Shown here: piece by piece, positions 2,892 through 10,008 of the stretch
Numbering within the stretch: position 1 is the stretch's first letter
How the letters are laid out: each line of letters opens with the position of its first letter
IMG/VR virus record: IMGVR_UViG_2703718832_000007
Location: 1 to 33,242 of that record
Reading direction: 5' to 3' (one strand)
Origin: a virus
Lineage: Duplodnaviria > Heunggongvirae > Uroviricota > Caudoviricetes
Length of the DNA: 33,242 nt
Notes under the pieces: model-generated
What the model was told of the DNA's origin: nothing
What the model saw: only the letters and a program-made list of their open reading frames with translations
The model's database searches: none
Program-made: the position numbers and the translations under genes

Positions 2892-4895
2892 CTACTTATC
2901 TGATGGTATGAACATACCGGCGCTATTGTCATGCAGACCAACGTAGCCAATGTTTGTACCGGCAGAGCAATAAACATTTATCGTCATTCCAGTAATCTCT
3001 GATTTTTTCGGTAGATCTCCACTAAATATTTCATTCAATGATATTATTTTAACATCCCATTCATCACCAAAGTTTTGTTGAGGGATTTCTAAGAATGTAT
3101 TTCCTGAAGAGGTTGATATGACAATAACTGTCCTGTTATAACCATCATATTCAGTGGATGCAATATTTATCGTGTGCCCCCCTCTACCAACAAAAACCAA
3201 GCTGCAATGTACAATTCCATGTTCAAACCTTTGGTGTATGGAAGACTGTTGAAGGTTAGTTCCGGGATATGAATTTGTCACTGCATAGTAGTCACTACCA
3301 GCATACCCACCACTCTCTTTAACCACTGCACCAGTCCATCCATCAGGGGTAGAACCTGACCAAGAATTAAACTTTGGATTCCTGATAATTGAGTATGGTG
3401 AGTACATCAGACACTGGTTGAAGGTTAACTTACCAGACGCTCTCACACCACCAAGGTCATCTTCTTTATAATATTGTTGTGCAATATCAATTTCCCAAGA
3501 ACATGAAGCACCAGCTTGATTTATAAATCCTGTATCAGTATTCCACTGTTTCGCGTTACTAAGTTGTTTTACAAAATATTTCGCTCTATTATTAAAACCT
3601 GTAGCTAAACCATGTATTCTAAGAGCATAGGAAGAATTAAGTGTATCAAAGTAACCTTTTACTATGCATCCGCGCGTTAAACCTGATTCAAAGCAGACGA
3701 CTGCATCACCAGCACCAGTTCCTCCAGAAGAAATGGCGAAGTTGTTTTCAAAATATCCATCAATTTCTATTCTATCTGAATAACCGAAAACAGATATAGC
3801 CCTGCCTTTATTCCCTTCAAATATACCATTGATGTGCATATCAAACTGGTTATTTATCGCCATTCCATCCCCACCAGTACATGCTGTTATTTTATTTACG
3901 CCATGCATGTATAGAGTGGTCCCTCTAGCAAGATAACTATCAGACCCGTTCAGGTATACCCCGGAAGTACCCCTAGCTAAAAGACTGTCTGTGTTATACC
4001 ACTCTGCATAACCAACTCCGAAGCTAAAGAAGTTATATGTTTGCCCGTTACGCAATTCGACATTTCGAATTTTATTGCGATAGCTTAAACCTCCTAACGC
4101 TATTGCAGCTGCTGGTATTTCAGGATTTGTTGTTGACTCCCACCTTACTAAACCTTTTGTGTAAGCAGGACCATCAGGAAGCATACTTTCTAGGGAAAGG
4201 TTTTCCAGAACACAATCCCATCCCATTGTAATTAGATCAACATCATTATCGTAAAGCCGGAGCTTTGTGAAGTATTTTCCGGCTCCACTTATAGAGGTGC
4301 CATCACGAGGAGTCAATCCATCTGTGATTTTATATTCACCCTCAGGAACAAACACCTGATATGATGCTGCAAGAGCGTTTTTAAAAGCATTTGTGTCATC
4401 AGTAACCCCATCACCTTTAGCGCCAAAATCCTTAACGCTAATCCAGTCTGCGTTTTTGTCATGCTGCGTGCGGCCTACTGAGTTAGTGCGAGGCTGCTTA
4501 ACCCCAACCAGTGCATCACCCATACCGTCTGCGTAGCTAGCGAGCTCCTGCCTGAACTGATCAGGGTCATACTTCAGCACATTAGGAAAATAAAACTGCT
4601 GTGCACCATACGCATCATAAACAGACATAGAATGGCCTTGCACAGTAACGAACTTGGCAATCTGTCCGTTATATACCGGATATCCAGCAGCGTTAATGAT
4701 GATTGGTTGCGAAACAGGAACGTGAGAACCGTCTTCGTTCTCTACATAAACCTGAATCTGGTTTTCAGGATTTACCGGGTCAGTGTCAATTTTTCCGATA
4801 TAAATTTTGCCATTGGCAACCGCTTTAAAAGAACGCGCCATAGTGAAGAGTTGCGAAGGCATTGATACGATCACATTGGCTGTAATGTCTGTCAT
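2892..4895 (-). CDS. Tailspike protein: P22-type head-binding N-terminal domain fused to a right-handed beta-helix (pectate-lyase-like) receptor-binding/depolymerase domain
   Basis: 667 aa; first ~110 residues ([50 protein letters not shown]...[10 protein letters not shown]) match the P22 gp9 head-binding domain; downstream [16 protein letters not shown] motif and Gly/Asn-rich repeats are typical of beta-helix glycanases; the C-terminal domain is unlike P22 gp9. Confidence 0.9.
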
Positions 4896-4995: not shown

Positions 4996-5940
4996 TCAGT
5001 AGTTATGTACTGAAGGAGGTAATTCTTTATTCTTAAGTCTCATCCATGCGGAAAGATTCGCTGGTCCGTCTGGCTCATTGATATCAACATCTCGTGTGTG
5101 ATTGATTAAAACGTCTCTCGCCATTCCGATAACATACGAGAATTCATGACCGTAGTCGTAGCATCTGCCGGAATAGTTCGATTGAACTTGTTTTAATGCC
5201 GGATACAGTTCGCGGAATAATGCCTGTGAACGGTTAGCATAATCCCATAGCCATACAAGGCTGTTTGCTTCTTTTGCAGAAAGCTCGTTTGCTTTCTTCT
5301 CTTGTTTGCCGATAAACTCGCCTTCAAGCACTACCCTGTGGATGTACTCTACGGCCAGCGGGATTTGTTCAATTGAAAGTTCATCAATGCTGTCAATACC
5401 AAAACGCTGATGAACCATATTGTATGCATCGTCATAGCGAAGTCCTTTCTTTCCTACCAGCATGTTTACTGCATCGCGTAGCGGCGTTCTTTCCTCAACA
5501 GTGGTTTTCTTGCCTTTCACATACTCGCCATGTTTGCGAATTGAAGGTAGAACTTCTGCTGTTACCCACTTGCGGAATTTGTGCGGGACCGAACCTTTAT
5601 TGACAGCATCGCGGCAGCGCAGAACCAATGTATACATACCTGATTCGCTAACAATGCTTAGATTCTGCTCACCACCAAGGGTGTAACTTAAAGTTACTCC
5701 CTTTTCATCGTCATCAAGTGCAGTAAGCGCCTTGCGTGAGTTAGTCAGGGTTAAAGCATCACAAACATCTTTTGCTACAAACCACGGCTCACCGCATTTG
5801 TTGATGACGCGGATTTCACTGTCGCCGAATTTGAAGATGGTGAAATCGTTTTGTGCCTTTGCTATACTTTTCATGTCAATATTTCCTAATCCGATTTGTT
5901 GATACCGAAGCCCTGACTGTTCCCGCAGTTGGGGCTTCAC
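4996..5940 (-). CDS. ant: Antirepressor Ant (immI region)
   Basis: 314 aa; N-terminal region [32 protein letters not shown] is Bro-N/antirepressor-like; sits directly upstream of the tailspike as P22 ant does. Confidence 0.8.
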
Positions 5941-5971
5941 TGTTTTGATTTCTTTGCCGCATCCAAGCGAA

Positions 5972-6860: not shown

Positions 6861-7085
6861 ATGATTTCTGCTATTTTATCGGTGCTGCTAGCGTCATTAT
6901 TCATCGGAGTGGTGTTGATCTCCCCGATGCCAATAATATCAATATTATTCATCTTGATGATCGGCTGGTTGTGGCTTAAAAAGGCAAGAAACGATTATTT
7001 TTTATCCATAAGAGATAAGCAATTGGAGCTTTTCCGCTTGGGGTACACTGGCGACTTGCCATTCTTAACATACCAAAAAAAGTAA
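6861..7085 (+). CDS. Small membrane protein, two predicted transmembrane helices
   Basis: 74 aa; GGGAG RBS about 7 nt upstream; two hydrophobic stretches (ILSVLLASLFIGVVLI and IISILFILMIGWLWL); followed by a terminator. Confidence 0.5.
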   Translation: MISAILSVLLASLFIGVVLISPMPIISILFILMIGWLWLKKARNDYFLSIRDKQLELFRLGYTGDLPFLTYQKK

Positions 7086-7090
7086 TAATC

Positions 7091-7114
7091 AAGCCGGGTC
7101 ACTCCGGCTTTTTG
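7091..7114 (+). terminator. Rho-independent terminator ending the mnt-side operon
   Basis: AAGCCGG-GTCACT-CCGGCTT followed by TTTT. Confidence 0.6.
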
Positions 7115-7464
7115 ATATGTCGCTCGCAGAACTCAACAAGTCTGCTCATTAAGTAGCAGTAAGTCTCGTTGGATCTTCCTGGTTCAACATCAACACCGAC
7201 CCTTGAGCAGATATCGAATGCCATGTGAGCGCACTCATGGGCAATAGTAGATAGTTTGCCATTGAACACGCCTATCACATGCAAAACACCATTCTCGCTG
7301 CTCATTGTATGAGACGCTCCGTTGGCATCCGAGTCCTGCACGTCCACGCCAAGTTTTTGATGCAGGCGTTGCCATTCTGGAAAGTCTCTGCAAAACACAA
7401 TCGTACCGCTCTCAAAGAGCGGTACGAGCATCTTTGGTACGTTTCCAATGTTAACTTTTTTCAT
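7099..7464 (-). CDS. Hypothetical protein with an HExxH motif (possible small ImmA/IrrE-like metallopeptidase)
   Basis: 121-aa ORF with an AGGA RBS; contains IAHECAHMAFDI (H-E-x-x-H); its last codons are encoded by the terminator hairpin of the opposite strand. Confidence 0.45.
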   Translation of the reverse strand: MKKVNIGNVPKMLVPLFESGTIVFCRDFPEWQRLHQKLGVDVQDSDANGASHTMSSENGVLHVIGVFNGKLSTIAHECAHMAFDICSRVGVDVEPGRSNETYCYLMSRLVEFCERHIKKPE

Positions 7465-7494
7465 GGTATCCTGCTCAAAACTAAGGAGGTTGGT

Positions 7495-7794
7495 GTGAAG
7501 CGATGGGTTATAGGTGCATTCTGTTTTCTAATTAGTGGTCTTGCACAATCGCAAGATAAGGATCTGAAATTTGCTAACGACATGTTAGTTACAGCTAAAG
7601 TTGCTGGTATGTGTGGAACATTTAAACAAATGTTTGCTTTTCAAGAAGCAACCCAGATGCCAGGCGGAGATGAATTTATTGAACGTTTTTTGAATACGGA
7701 AATTTCTCGCCTAGGAATGTCACTTCAAGAGTTCATGAAGTTGTGCACAGATTCTATAGAGTCATACAATAAATTAAAAAGGATGTCAGAATAG
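7495..7794 (+). CDS. Small secreted/periplasmic protein with N-terminal signal peptide
   Basis: GTG start 6 nt after an AAGGAGG RBS (the longer track ORF from 7279 is in the same frame but has no RBS); N-terminus KRWVIGAFCFLISGLAQSQD is signal-peptide-like; 99 aa. Confidence 0.5.
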   Translation: MKRWVIGAFCFLISGLAQSQDKDLKFANDMLVTAKVAGMCGTFKQMFAFQEATQMPGGDEFIERFLNTEISRLGMSLQEFMKLCTDSIESYNKLKRMSE

Positions 7795-7820
7795 CCATCC
7801 ATGGCTATCTGGAGGTTAAT

Positions 7821-7889
7821 ATGGTAACAGTCGGTTGGATTATTGTTGCCCTGCTTGTTGCTCTGTGGGCAAAGAATCGTTACTACTGA
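7821..7889 (+). CDS. 22-aa hydrophobic peptide ORF ([22 protein letters not shown])
   Basis: Hand-found; GGAGG RBS 7 nt upstream of ATG; single predicted transmembrane segment; antisense overlap with the 3' end of the gp16-like gene. Confidence 0.35.
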   Translation: MVTVGWIIVALLVALWAKNRYY

Positions 7890-10008
7890 GAAAAGCGACA
7901 ATACCAACGCGGGCTAGATTTTTCTTCTCGTCCGCTGATAGCGTATTTACCCAATCCCTATATGGTTTCACTTTCTGCATTGAAGCATCCACCGATTTCC
8001 TAGAGGCTGGAGTGCTAGCGTGACTTGCGGCAATCCTTTTTGAGAGATTTTTAAAAGCCGGAGATGCTATTAATTCATCAGCGGCAGCCATTCTTGAGTT
8101 TTTACCAGAACGGAGGAGGCTAAAGAGTACCCCTGCCGTACCGGCTCCCGGCGCTCCGATGGCAGTGGTTAGCCCCTCTGCTTTAGCCACGTCTTTTCCT
8201 ATTCCATATATACGCCCAAGCATTCCCTTCTCTCCTGCGAACTGATTCATCATCCGGTCAATTTGAGAGGAGGAATACACCTTCTCGCTGCCCACCCTTT
8301 GCATGCCAGAAGCCACCTCATAGATGTTTCTCAACCTACGCGTAGCCGGATAGCCAATTGCCCGGCTCAATGCCTGCATATTTGATTTGTTTCTTGATAG
8401 ACCTCCATACCACTTAACAAATCCAGGAACACCGAGTGACTGCCCGGGAGATTTAGCGAACGTAGTGAAAGCCCTATTCATTGCGGTGGCAACAGCTGGT
8501 TGCACCATGTCATCAGGAAGATTTGAAACCAGGCGACGGAAGTCACCGCCCTTTCCTTGAGACATGTCGACGATAGCTTGCTGCAATTGCGGCACTATTC
8601 CTTTATCCAGGTCTCTGCCAAGATTTTGAATGGCGGCTGCCTGTACTGCGAATCTCTTTCTCCCGATCTCTCTAGCTAAATTCCATGTATCCTCTGCACC
8701 ATATTTGGCAGCAGCGGCTCCCTGATCTTGTATCAGTGCGCTTTCAAGAATTCCAAGGTGCCGAGCGTCGATGCCGCTATATGGCCCTTTATCCATCTCT
8801 TTGCCAAGAGCCCTTCCAACCTGCCGTCGAACTGCATCAAGAAGACCATAAGTCGGGGCGGTGTTTGGGTCTATTTGTTCCAAGGTCTTTGACAGTTGAG
8901 GATATAGCGATTTTAGTTTTTCTAGCCCACCGACATCATCTGCAATATCCTCAATGGCGTTAGTGGTATGGGAGGTATCTACGGTAGCTCTGGTTGGAAT
9001 TTTTGCTCTAATTTGATTGTATAGAGTGTCTTCTTGGCGCTTCAGGTTTGATCTTAACTCCTCATAAGAGCTTTTTACCTTTTGATTGATAAAGTCCTTA
9101 TCAACGCTCCCACCAAAATCATTAATAAATTTATCTGCCTGCTCTCCAAGCCTACTAATGGCCTCTCGCTGTGCGTGGAACAGTTTATTACCAGGGGTTG
9201 CAGCTAAAGCATTTTCAAACGCGCGGTAAGAAGGGTTGCTGGAGTACATGCCGGGAGTTAAGGCATCCTCTATCCCAAGATTGCGGGCGGCCTGTAGCAC
9301 AGAATCATCTGGTGAAACAGCTTCCGCGAGAGCATTCAAACCAGATCTGTTTCCTGTTATTGGATTCACATCTGTAGCTTTCGTTGCAACCTTCGCCATT
9401 CCACTAAGTTCAGATGCCTGAGACATTTCTGCCGATGGAGGCCTAAACCTCTTCGTAACCGCACTGGCTGCTTTACTAATCACTGGAGATGCCAATTCAG
9501 CAATTGGACCAGCGGCAGCACCTATAGTCGCCCCTGTAGTTACATTGCCACCGGTTCCGTTAGCAACAACACCACCTTCAACCGCACCAAGCCCTGCGGC
9601 GGCAGCCAGCCTTGCCGCCCCTTTCGGAACCTGAGAAATAATCCCACCACCACTAACAAATGGCGCTGCTTGTCCAACGAACTCACCAACATCTTGTGCG
9701 GTTGATGGTTTTGCCGCTAACTTCTGCTGTAGAGACTGAATTGCGGCTTGCTCTTCTGGTGTCATATCCTGAAACAGGCCAACACCTTTACCAACATCCA
9801 TCAATCCACTGAGAACGCCATACATAAAACGGTCGAAACCGTTAGCATTATTAACAACATTTTCCTGTCTGGAATTTTCCTCTGGTGAAACCAAAGGAGA
9901 TTGCTGCTGTTCTGGTTGGGAATCAAGCACAAAGCCATCAGGAAGTTGTGAGTTATCAGGCTGTTCATCCAGAACAAACCCCTCTGGTAAACCTACATTG
10001 GTTGCCAT
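7840..10008 (-). CDS. Ejection (injection) protein, P22 gp16-like
   Basis: 722-aa Ala/Gly/Gln-rich protein occupying the last position in the conserved P22 order gp7-gp20-gp16. Confidence 0.75.

Follow-up and report, generated by a model that had tools for sequence, protein, structure and literature searches.

Small membrane peptides such as MgrB, MgtR, AcrZ, SgrT and KdpF are single hydrophobic helices of less than 50 aa, which have their own Shine-Dalgarno (SD) sequences, are overlooked by gene callers and bind larger membrane proteins. Hydrophobic peptides of 19–30 aa are also encoded by the Ibs/Sib, ShoB/OhsC and TisB/IstR systems, in which the peptide gene is antisense to another transcript. 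A different kind of membrane protein comes from the P22-like prophages, which serve as a model of how DNA is delivered and superinfection excluded: SieA (types A–C; Leavitt et al. 2024, PMC10883804) is a multi-pass inner-membrane protein of ~160–200 aa featuring the motif FxRYPxEAxxFNK. Two thirds of the P22-like prophages are devoid of sieA (PMC10883804), and the content of the sieA slot in such sieA-less phages is largely uncharacterized.

We analyzed a 33,242-nucleotide stretch of viral DNA (hereafter the window), which is a P22-like (Lederbergvirus) prophage, and focused on a small ORF of 22 codons and a TGA stop (7821–7889 (+)). We predict, with a probability of about 0.6, that this is a genuine but unannotated membrane micro-protein gene of 21–22 codons, which is displayed by a subset of the P22-like (Lederbergvirus) prophages. 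The peptides would constitute a new, narrowly distributed small-protein family of a known general kind. The ORF is situated at the 3′ edge of the sieA slot, with its own SD and ATG in the short spacer that follows the end of the gp16-position ejection-protein gene. Its frame, start signals, length and hydrophobic-then-basic/aromatic design are conserved despite gp16-type C-termini that are only ~44–47% identical and five different upstream genes.

The sieA slot and its cassettes

The closest deposited phage is Escherichia phage Kapi1 (99.3% identity over 7488–9000), and slot synteny with both Kapi1 and P22-pbi places the small ORF between the homologues of genes 16 and 9. Window positions 7077–7497 are 98.3% identical to P22 and include its annotated t_mnt and PsieA features and the sieA SD, with the PsieA promoter feature of AF527608 (L002 3358–3388) mapping to 7434–7464 (+). 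The homology to P22 stops exactly at the sieA GTG start codon, which corresponds to the actual start (GTG 7495, with AAGGAGG ahead of it at 7483–7489) of the upstream cassette gene (7495–7794 (+)). This gene codes for a 99-aa signal-peptide protein (phrog_19844, the same as Kapi1_059). As the P22-homologous PsieA region is followed by a GTG opening this protein instead of SieA, the locus is the sieA slot, known for expression in the prophage, with a different cassette. No terminator-like site was found on the + strand between 7110 and 8600, and Kapi1_059 is absent from the genes listed as unexpressed in Kapi1 lysogens (PMC12922286). The signal-peptide gene is likely the first cistron of the transcript carrying the small ORF.

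The signal-peptide protein shares its VKRW start with an unrelated 75-aa membrane protein of the E212/EC.P3 phage type (window 7483–7506; L029 2124–2135 (−)), in both cases at the GTG equivalent to the P22 sieA start. This common start suggests that the slot has a fixed 5′ boundary, comprising PsieA, the SD and the first ~4 codons, behind which different envelope-protein cassettes appear to be swapped. In class-B prophages (see below), the gene directly upstream of the small ORF is labeled “YobH family protein” by PGAP (L093 1012–1218 and L094 1012–1218, both E. coli chromosomes); this is a small secreted-type protein and represents another envelope-directed cassette in the sieA slot. The original prediction had implied a tie between the small ORF and the signal-peptide gene, which did not withstand the comparison: two loci (L011, L012) have the signal-peptide homologue and the palindrome described below, followed by a different gene-16 end and no ORF, and the ORF is elsewhere found directly behind at least five different genes. 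Accordingly, the ORF travels with the gp16-type tail and not with the signal-peptide gene.

The region flanking the slot on its 5′ side features several further elements. The P22-homologous spacer between t_mnt and PsieA contains a 121-aa ORF (7099–7464 (−)), which matches phrog_1365 (E = 2.6e-39) and displays a HECAH (HExxH-like) motif; it has no annotation in the P22-pbi record and is a hypothetical protein in other P22-like records. Within the 5′ part of this ORF and just upstream of the PsieA region is a 12-bp GC-rich stem with a T-rich tail (7401–7427 (−)). The P22 t_mnt feature has its counterpart in a hairpin at 7091–7110, for which a terminator is scored on either strand. Farther away, Rfam recovers the sar antisense RNA at 5876–5941 (+) (RF00262; 63.7 bits, E = 4e-11). 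The immI region of P22 has this RNA as well, and the match confirms an intact ant/arc/sar module.

At its 3′ end, the cassette runs into an 18-nt palindrome, ATAGCCATCCATGGCTAT (7791–7808; stem AGCCA/TGGCT with the 4-nt loop TCCA), which includes the stop codon of the upstream gene and is followed by the small ORF. The stem is kept across loci in the form AGCCA-TCCN-TGGCT, with A, T or G as the fourth loop base; it was found in the window and in L011, L012, L018, L024, L028 and L046, and in P22 as GCCGTCCTTGGC (L002 ~3916–3930). No U-tract follows it on either strand, and the terminator scan did not score it. It has the appearance of a fixed boundary on the 3′ side of the cassette or of a recombination linker, or possibly of an RNA 3′-end element. 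This hairpin is at the center of a rival reading, in which the open frame is fortuitous, the hairpin and adjacent sequence form a conserved non-coding junction element, and the rest is held by the coding constraint on gp16. Such an element could act as a recombination linker, or it could define the RNA 3′ ends or the stability of the transcripts that converge here from the sieA slot and the late genes. The presence of the hairpin in loci without the small ORF (L011, L012 and P22), whatever the flanking genes, speaks for this reading. Against it, the same three loci keep the hairpin with nothing resembling the next 30 nt, from which it follows that the hairpin does not need that sequence. Structure predictions for the region point in the same direction: single-sequence folds of both strands were non-significant (z = −1.4), the alignment fold supported only the 5-bp hairpin (covariation term −0.19), and no Rfam family was matched, leaving no significant or covarying RNA structure beyond that hairpin. 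On the whole evidence, including the conservation pattern considered below, we regard the junction-element reading as unlikely, though one to be taken seriously.

The small ORF and the tail of the gp16-type gene

The original prediction of a 22-aa ORF was borne out, in that an ATG (7821–7823), 22 sense codons and a TGA (7887–7889) are all present. Its start signal was partly right: the GGAGG is present at 7811–7815 (+), but the spacer to the ATG is of 5 nt (TTAAT) and not 7 nt. The peptide has a hydrophobic run of 16–17 residues followed by a basic/aromatic C-terminal tail; such a run is short for a transmembrane helix, which is a point against the membrane-gene reading.

The ORF was further described as antisense to the end of a gp16-like gene, and we indeed found a 50-nt convergent overlap (7840–7889) that comprises the last 16 codons and the stop codon of a 722-aa gene on the opposite strand (7840–10008 (−); phrog_6704). 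The overlapped segment codes for a polar tail, which is variable and losable (see below). The 722-aa gene comes after gp7-like (phrog_598, “DNA ejection”) and gp20-like (phrog_917) genes, i.e., it occupies the gp16 position. A BLASTP comparison of its product with P22 gp16 was non-significant (E = 0.087); hence, the “gp16-like” label is a synteny-based one. The absence of BLASTP similarity fits the 22–26% identity published for the different gp16 types (PMC10883804).

Only codons 1–6 of the small ORF (7821–7838) are outside the gp16-type gene, with the remaining codons antisense to its tail. Thus, start-codon and nonsense mutations could be introduced without touching that gene, and Kapi1 with its host E. 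coli MP1 offers a cultivable phage and host carrying the small ORF. If the ORF were untranslated, the finding would reduce to a conserved cassette-boundary element.

The extent of the overlap differs between relatives, which we divided by their gp16-type C-terminal regions into tail classes A (the window type), A′ (81% aa identity) and B (~44–47% identity). Depending on the class, the gp16 stop is at +19, +31 or +34 from the small-ORF ATG and the small ORF is antisense to the last 10–16 codons of the gp16-type gene; the tail thus varies in length while the small ORF remains intact. In the E212/EC.P3 type, the gp16-type protein is nearly identical to that of a tail-bearing locus (L040) up to ITWL, and then ends with ASDS and a stop. 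Both the polar tail and the small ORF are gone, and a convergent gene coding for the above-mentioned 75-aa membrane protein (phrog_7294) occupies the place of the small ORF. From this replacement, we conclude that gain or loss affects the polar gp16 tail together with the small ORF, and that the polar tail is dispensable for this family of gp16-type proteins. Whether by function or simply by virtue of the physical overlap, the small ORF is inseparably linked to a single class of gp16 tail.

Conservation and possible selection in the small frame

There are nine GGAGG-N4-9-ATG sites in the window as against 5.4 ± 2.2 in shuffled sequences, and the SD+ATG signal alone does not exceed chance. About half of the 16-codon windows in the same antisense frame of the late genes are open, and the openness of the antisense frame alone is likewise non-significant. 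Both facts are in line with a fortuitous frame next to a junction element, as an SD and ATG can arise by chance. Windows of 16 codons in that frame which are both open and equally hydrophobic are rarer (1.3–1.8%). As these features of the window sequence are weak evidence on their own, the case rests on the comparison with relatives. One observation in favor of the small ORF concerns codon choice, as its second codon position coincides with the wobble position of gp16. Resampling of the synonymous codons in the gp16 tail, under an unchanged gp16 protein, gave an antisense ORF that was open and just as hydrophobic with P = 0.058, 0.096, 0.065, 0.31 and 0.0014 for five variants, values which are mutually non-independent.

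Relatives were gathered through the body of the gp16-type protein, and not through the ORF, from IMG/VR, GenBank phages (tblastn) and complete E. coli genomes. The small ORF was found in every locus with a tail of class A, A′ or B, and no lost start or premature stop was seen in ~30 IMG/VR loci, two of the four matching phage records and three E. coli loci that were read. The start codon, SD-like motif and frame hold throughout diverged relatives that were collected without recourse to the ORF. This bears directly on the original prediction, for which a lack of conservation of the peptide in related phages would have been fatal: the ORF is conserved. There are six peptide variants of 21–22 aa, among them the window form, MVTIGWIIAALVVALWAKGRYY, MVTIGWIIAFLIAFWIGRRCL and a W6S form; the latter, found in Kapi1 and two IMG/VR contigs, alters an otherwise invariant residue, which is a point against the micro-protein reading. 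The ORF is absent from P22, L059 and the abundant E212/EC.P3 type. Overall, the distribution is narrow, with DNA matches to the region in a few dozen contigs of IMG/VR and, among 5,426 complete genomes of E. coli, in 19. A homologue search with the gp16-type C-terminal 250 aa recovered a single cluster, contig searches with the gp16-type C-terminus (as an alignment and as a single protein) recovered nothing, a metagenome scan yielded one near-identical contig, and tblastn of the peptides against phages and plasmids returned only Kapi1 and noise.

All variants have a purine-rich, SD-like motif 5–6 nt upstream of the ATG (GGAGG, GGGAGG, GGAG or AAGGTG), with a weaker GGGGA in some copies of the B2 variant. 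Three different linkers connect the hairpin to the ATG (e.g., GGCGGAGGTTTAAA in L024 and GGCAAAGGTGCTT in L046), and the SD-like motif and ATG are kept in each of them. This persistence of the start signals in a diverging linker is not what would be expected of a non-coding junction element. The strongest conservation, on the other hand, favors such an element: A1 and B1 are 84–90% identical over a 60-nt island spanning the hairpin, the SD and the first eight codons, as against ~50% further into gp16. Instead of reflecting selection on its sequence, this island could be a block that was exchanged by recombination in the recent past. Within it, classes A and B differ in the first eight codons of the small ORF by only two third-position changes, and the variable sites across all variants are third positions or V/I changes, a pattern that argues against the non-coding alternative. 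In class B, codons 1–10 are outside gp16, yet they form the best-conserved stretch.

To compare the frames, we computed pN/pS by Nei–Gojobori counts over all six frames for the pairs A1–A′ and B1–B3, which differ by 9–11 substitutions each. Among these frames, the minimum of pN/pS is in that of the small ORF (0.27 for A1–A′ and 0.30 for B1–B3, from only 9–11 substitutions per pair), and the gp16 frame gives 0.67 and 1.47, respectively. Within the gp16 gene for A1–A′, the body has a pN/pS of 0.15 with a pS of 0.77, and the overlapped tail a pN/pS of 0.59 with a pS of 0.31; overall, the tail has a pN/pS of 0.59–1.47 versus 0.15 for the body. The lowered pS together with the raised pN/pS is, on these counts, the pattern expected from an overlapping constraint. 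On the same counts, the gp16 tail, which the E212-type phages do without, is the least constrained reading of the overlap, a further point against the junction-element reading. The B2 variant departs from this picture: it is much less hydrophobic than the others, and its comparison with B1 and B3 gives a pN/pS of ~1 in an alignment with compensating indels. Only about five or six distinct lineages are behind all these substitution statistics, and this paucity of independent lineages is a further point for the junction-element reading. With these limits, the substitution pattern appears to fit the small frame better than the gp16 frame.

The same pattern bears on another rival, namely that the act of translation matters and not its product. 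Translating ribosomes would protect the PsieA transcript at its 3′ end, fix the point at which Rho stops its course antisense into the late operon, and in this way tune the antisense interference with gp16 expression. Consistent with this, there is no intrinsic terminator past the cassette gene, the ORF carries translation ~70 nt into the gp16 antisense, and lysogens of Kapi1 are reported to show a signal on the negative strand, antisense to Kapi1_056 (PMC12922286). The amino-acid pattern argues for a selected product instead: the N-terminus MVT[VI]GWII is near-invariant, the hydrophobic core is kept via non-identical residues, the tail is basic/aromatic and the pN/pS is ~0.3. Accordingly, we consider this explanation very improbable and prefer the reading as a micro-protein gene.

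Resemblances to the N-terminus were also encountered in unrelated contexts. An internal hydrophobic segment, GITSMVTFGWIIGGVALIAGAAYLI, of phage ORFs of >440 codons (IMG/VR L099, L101, L103 and L106), which are probably tape-measure-like, has as its first eight residues MVTFGWII, nearly the same as the N-terminus of the peptide. A 37-aa hydrophobic ORF (L097 1052–1165; 44 aa from an upstream ATG) with a GGAGG 7 nt upstream starts with the same eight residues, MVTVGWII; its neighbors, in a viral contig of 148 kb that is otherwise unrelated, are a methylase-like gene and a further ORF, and the match probably arose by chance. Relaxing the DNA pattern for the N-terminus gave five independent matches, about the rough expectation for 17 specified bases, and both the MVTFGWII and the L097 resemblances are for this reason judged to be coincidental.

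Predicted action and relation to known systems

None of the six peptides has an exact match in a collection of ~15 billion proteins, and the small ORF is unannotated in the Kapi1 GenBank record and by PGAP on the E. coli genomes. The view of it as a strongly initiated small membrane-peptide gene that escapes annotation is thereby supported. The search of PHROGs gave a sole match to phrog_36371 (E = 0.053), and that of Pfam and NCBIfam (E ≤ 10) gave no toxin family, with only a meaningless 13.8-bit match to Rv3103c.

We propose the following scheme for the lysogen. RNA polymerase would start at the PsieA-homologous promoter, transcribe the cassette gene and read through the hairpin with its lack of a U-tract, after which ribosomes would initiate independently at the GGAGG/ATG of the small ORF. 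The peptide would then insert in the inner membrane as one helix with the N-terminus out and the C-terminus in, an orientation predicted from the positive-inside rule as applied to K18 and R20. More speculatively, it might act on the envelope like its neighbors in the slot, i.e., SieA, the signal-peptide proteins and the 75-aa TM protein, with the most likely action being interference with DNA delivery by incoming P22-like phages or the modulation of a host inner-membrane protein. Such an envelope or superinfection-exclusion role is suggested by position and is speculative. A more specific version, which we hold to be improbable, is that the micro-protein, a single inner-membrane helix expressed in the lysogen, is allele-matched to the ejection protein whose gene it overlaps. 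It would recognize gp16-type proteins of the same tail class as they arrive, and block or gate the assembly of the inner-membrane DNA conduit. If true, the antisense overlap would hard-wire the specificity of exclusion or immunity to its target gene, such that recombination cannot separate them.

The original prediction had also raised the possibility of a type I toxin. In this alternative, the ORF would belong to a toxin-antitoxin-like module, with a membrane-depolarizing peptide whose mRNA is kept in check either by the late (gp16) transcript from the other strand or by an antisense sRNA of its own. The size and hydrophobicity of the peptide resemble those of toxins of the Ibs, ShoB and TisB class, its ORF is antisense to another transcript, and its SD is strong. 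The searches did not bear this out: no toxin family was matched in Pfam, NCBIfam or PADLOC-independent libraries; Rfam (7300–8300, E ≤ 5) gave no family and no antitoxin or toxin-mRNA; and no significant SD-sequestering fold was found. The suggested search of the opposite strand for an antisense RNA gave no promoter- or terminator-like site for a dedicated RNA on the − strand at 7800–8100 by a consensus scan, which a weak promoter could escape. Moreover, the late mRNA is the sole transcript antisense to the ORF, and it is not made in the lysogen, just when the PsieA-type promoter should drive the peptide; therefore, an unrestrained toxin would be counter-selected. We accordingly give the toxin reading hardly any credence and retain that of a micro-protein gene, with activity at the envelope as a candidate function. 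A conserved membrane peptide encoded where the ejection-protein operon ends would add a candidate to the players at the inner membrane, and the small ORF would be a clean case of an antisense-overlapping micro-gene shaping the dispensable tail of a structural protein.

Among known systems, the small ORF resembles Ibs/Sib, ShoB/OhsC and TisB/IstR in encoding a hydrophobic peptide antisense to a transcript. It differs from them in lacking an antisense sRNA gene of its own, any family match and a structured leader, and in its position in an operon expressed in the lysogen. P22 SieA is comparable by location, being situated in the same slot, flanked by the gene-16 homologue on one side and immI/gene 9 on the other, and convergent with gene 16, and the PsieA region is kept in the window. 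However, SieA is the slot cassette gene itself, whereas the small ORF is downstream of the cassette gene, and its peptide of 21–22 aa has one hydrophobic run, lacks the FxRYPxEAxxFNK motif and shows no sequence similarity to SieA. The 75-aa membrane protein of E212/EC.P3 (phrog_7294, XOD30074.1) is hydrophobic as well, and its gene is in the same place, convergent with and overlapping the stop codon of the nearly identical gp16-type gene. Unlike the small-ORF peptide, it has about two predicted hydrophobic segments and an unrelated sequence, and is itself a slot cassette, with VKRW at the sieA-type start. Finally, in comparison with the MgrB/MgtR/AcrZ/SgrT/KdpF class, the small-ORF peptide is unrelated in sequence, shorter than most, phage-borne and encoded in antisense overlap with a structural gene; like the members of that class, it is a predicted single hydrophobic helix of <50 aa with its own SD, which is missed by gene callers.
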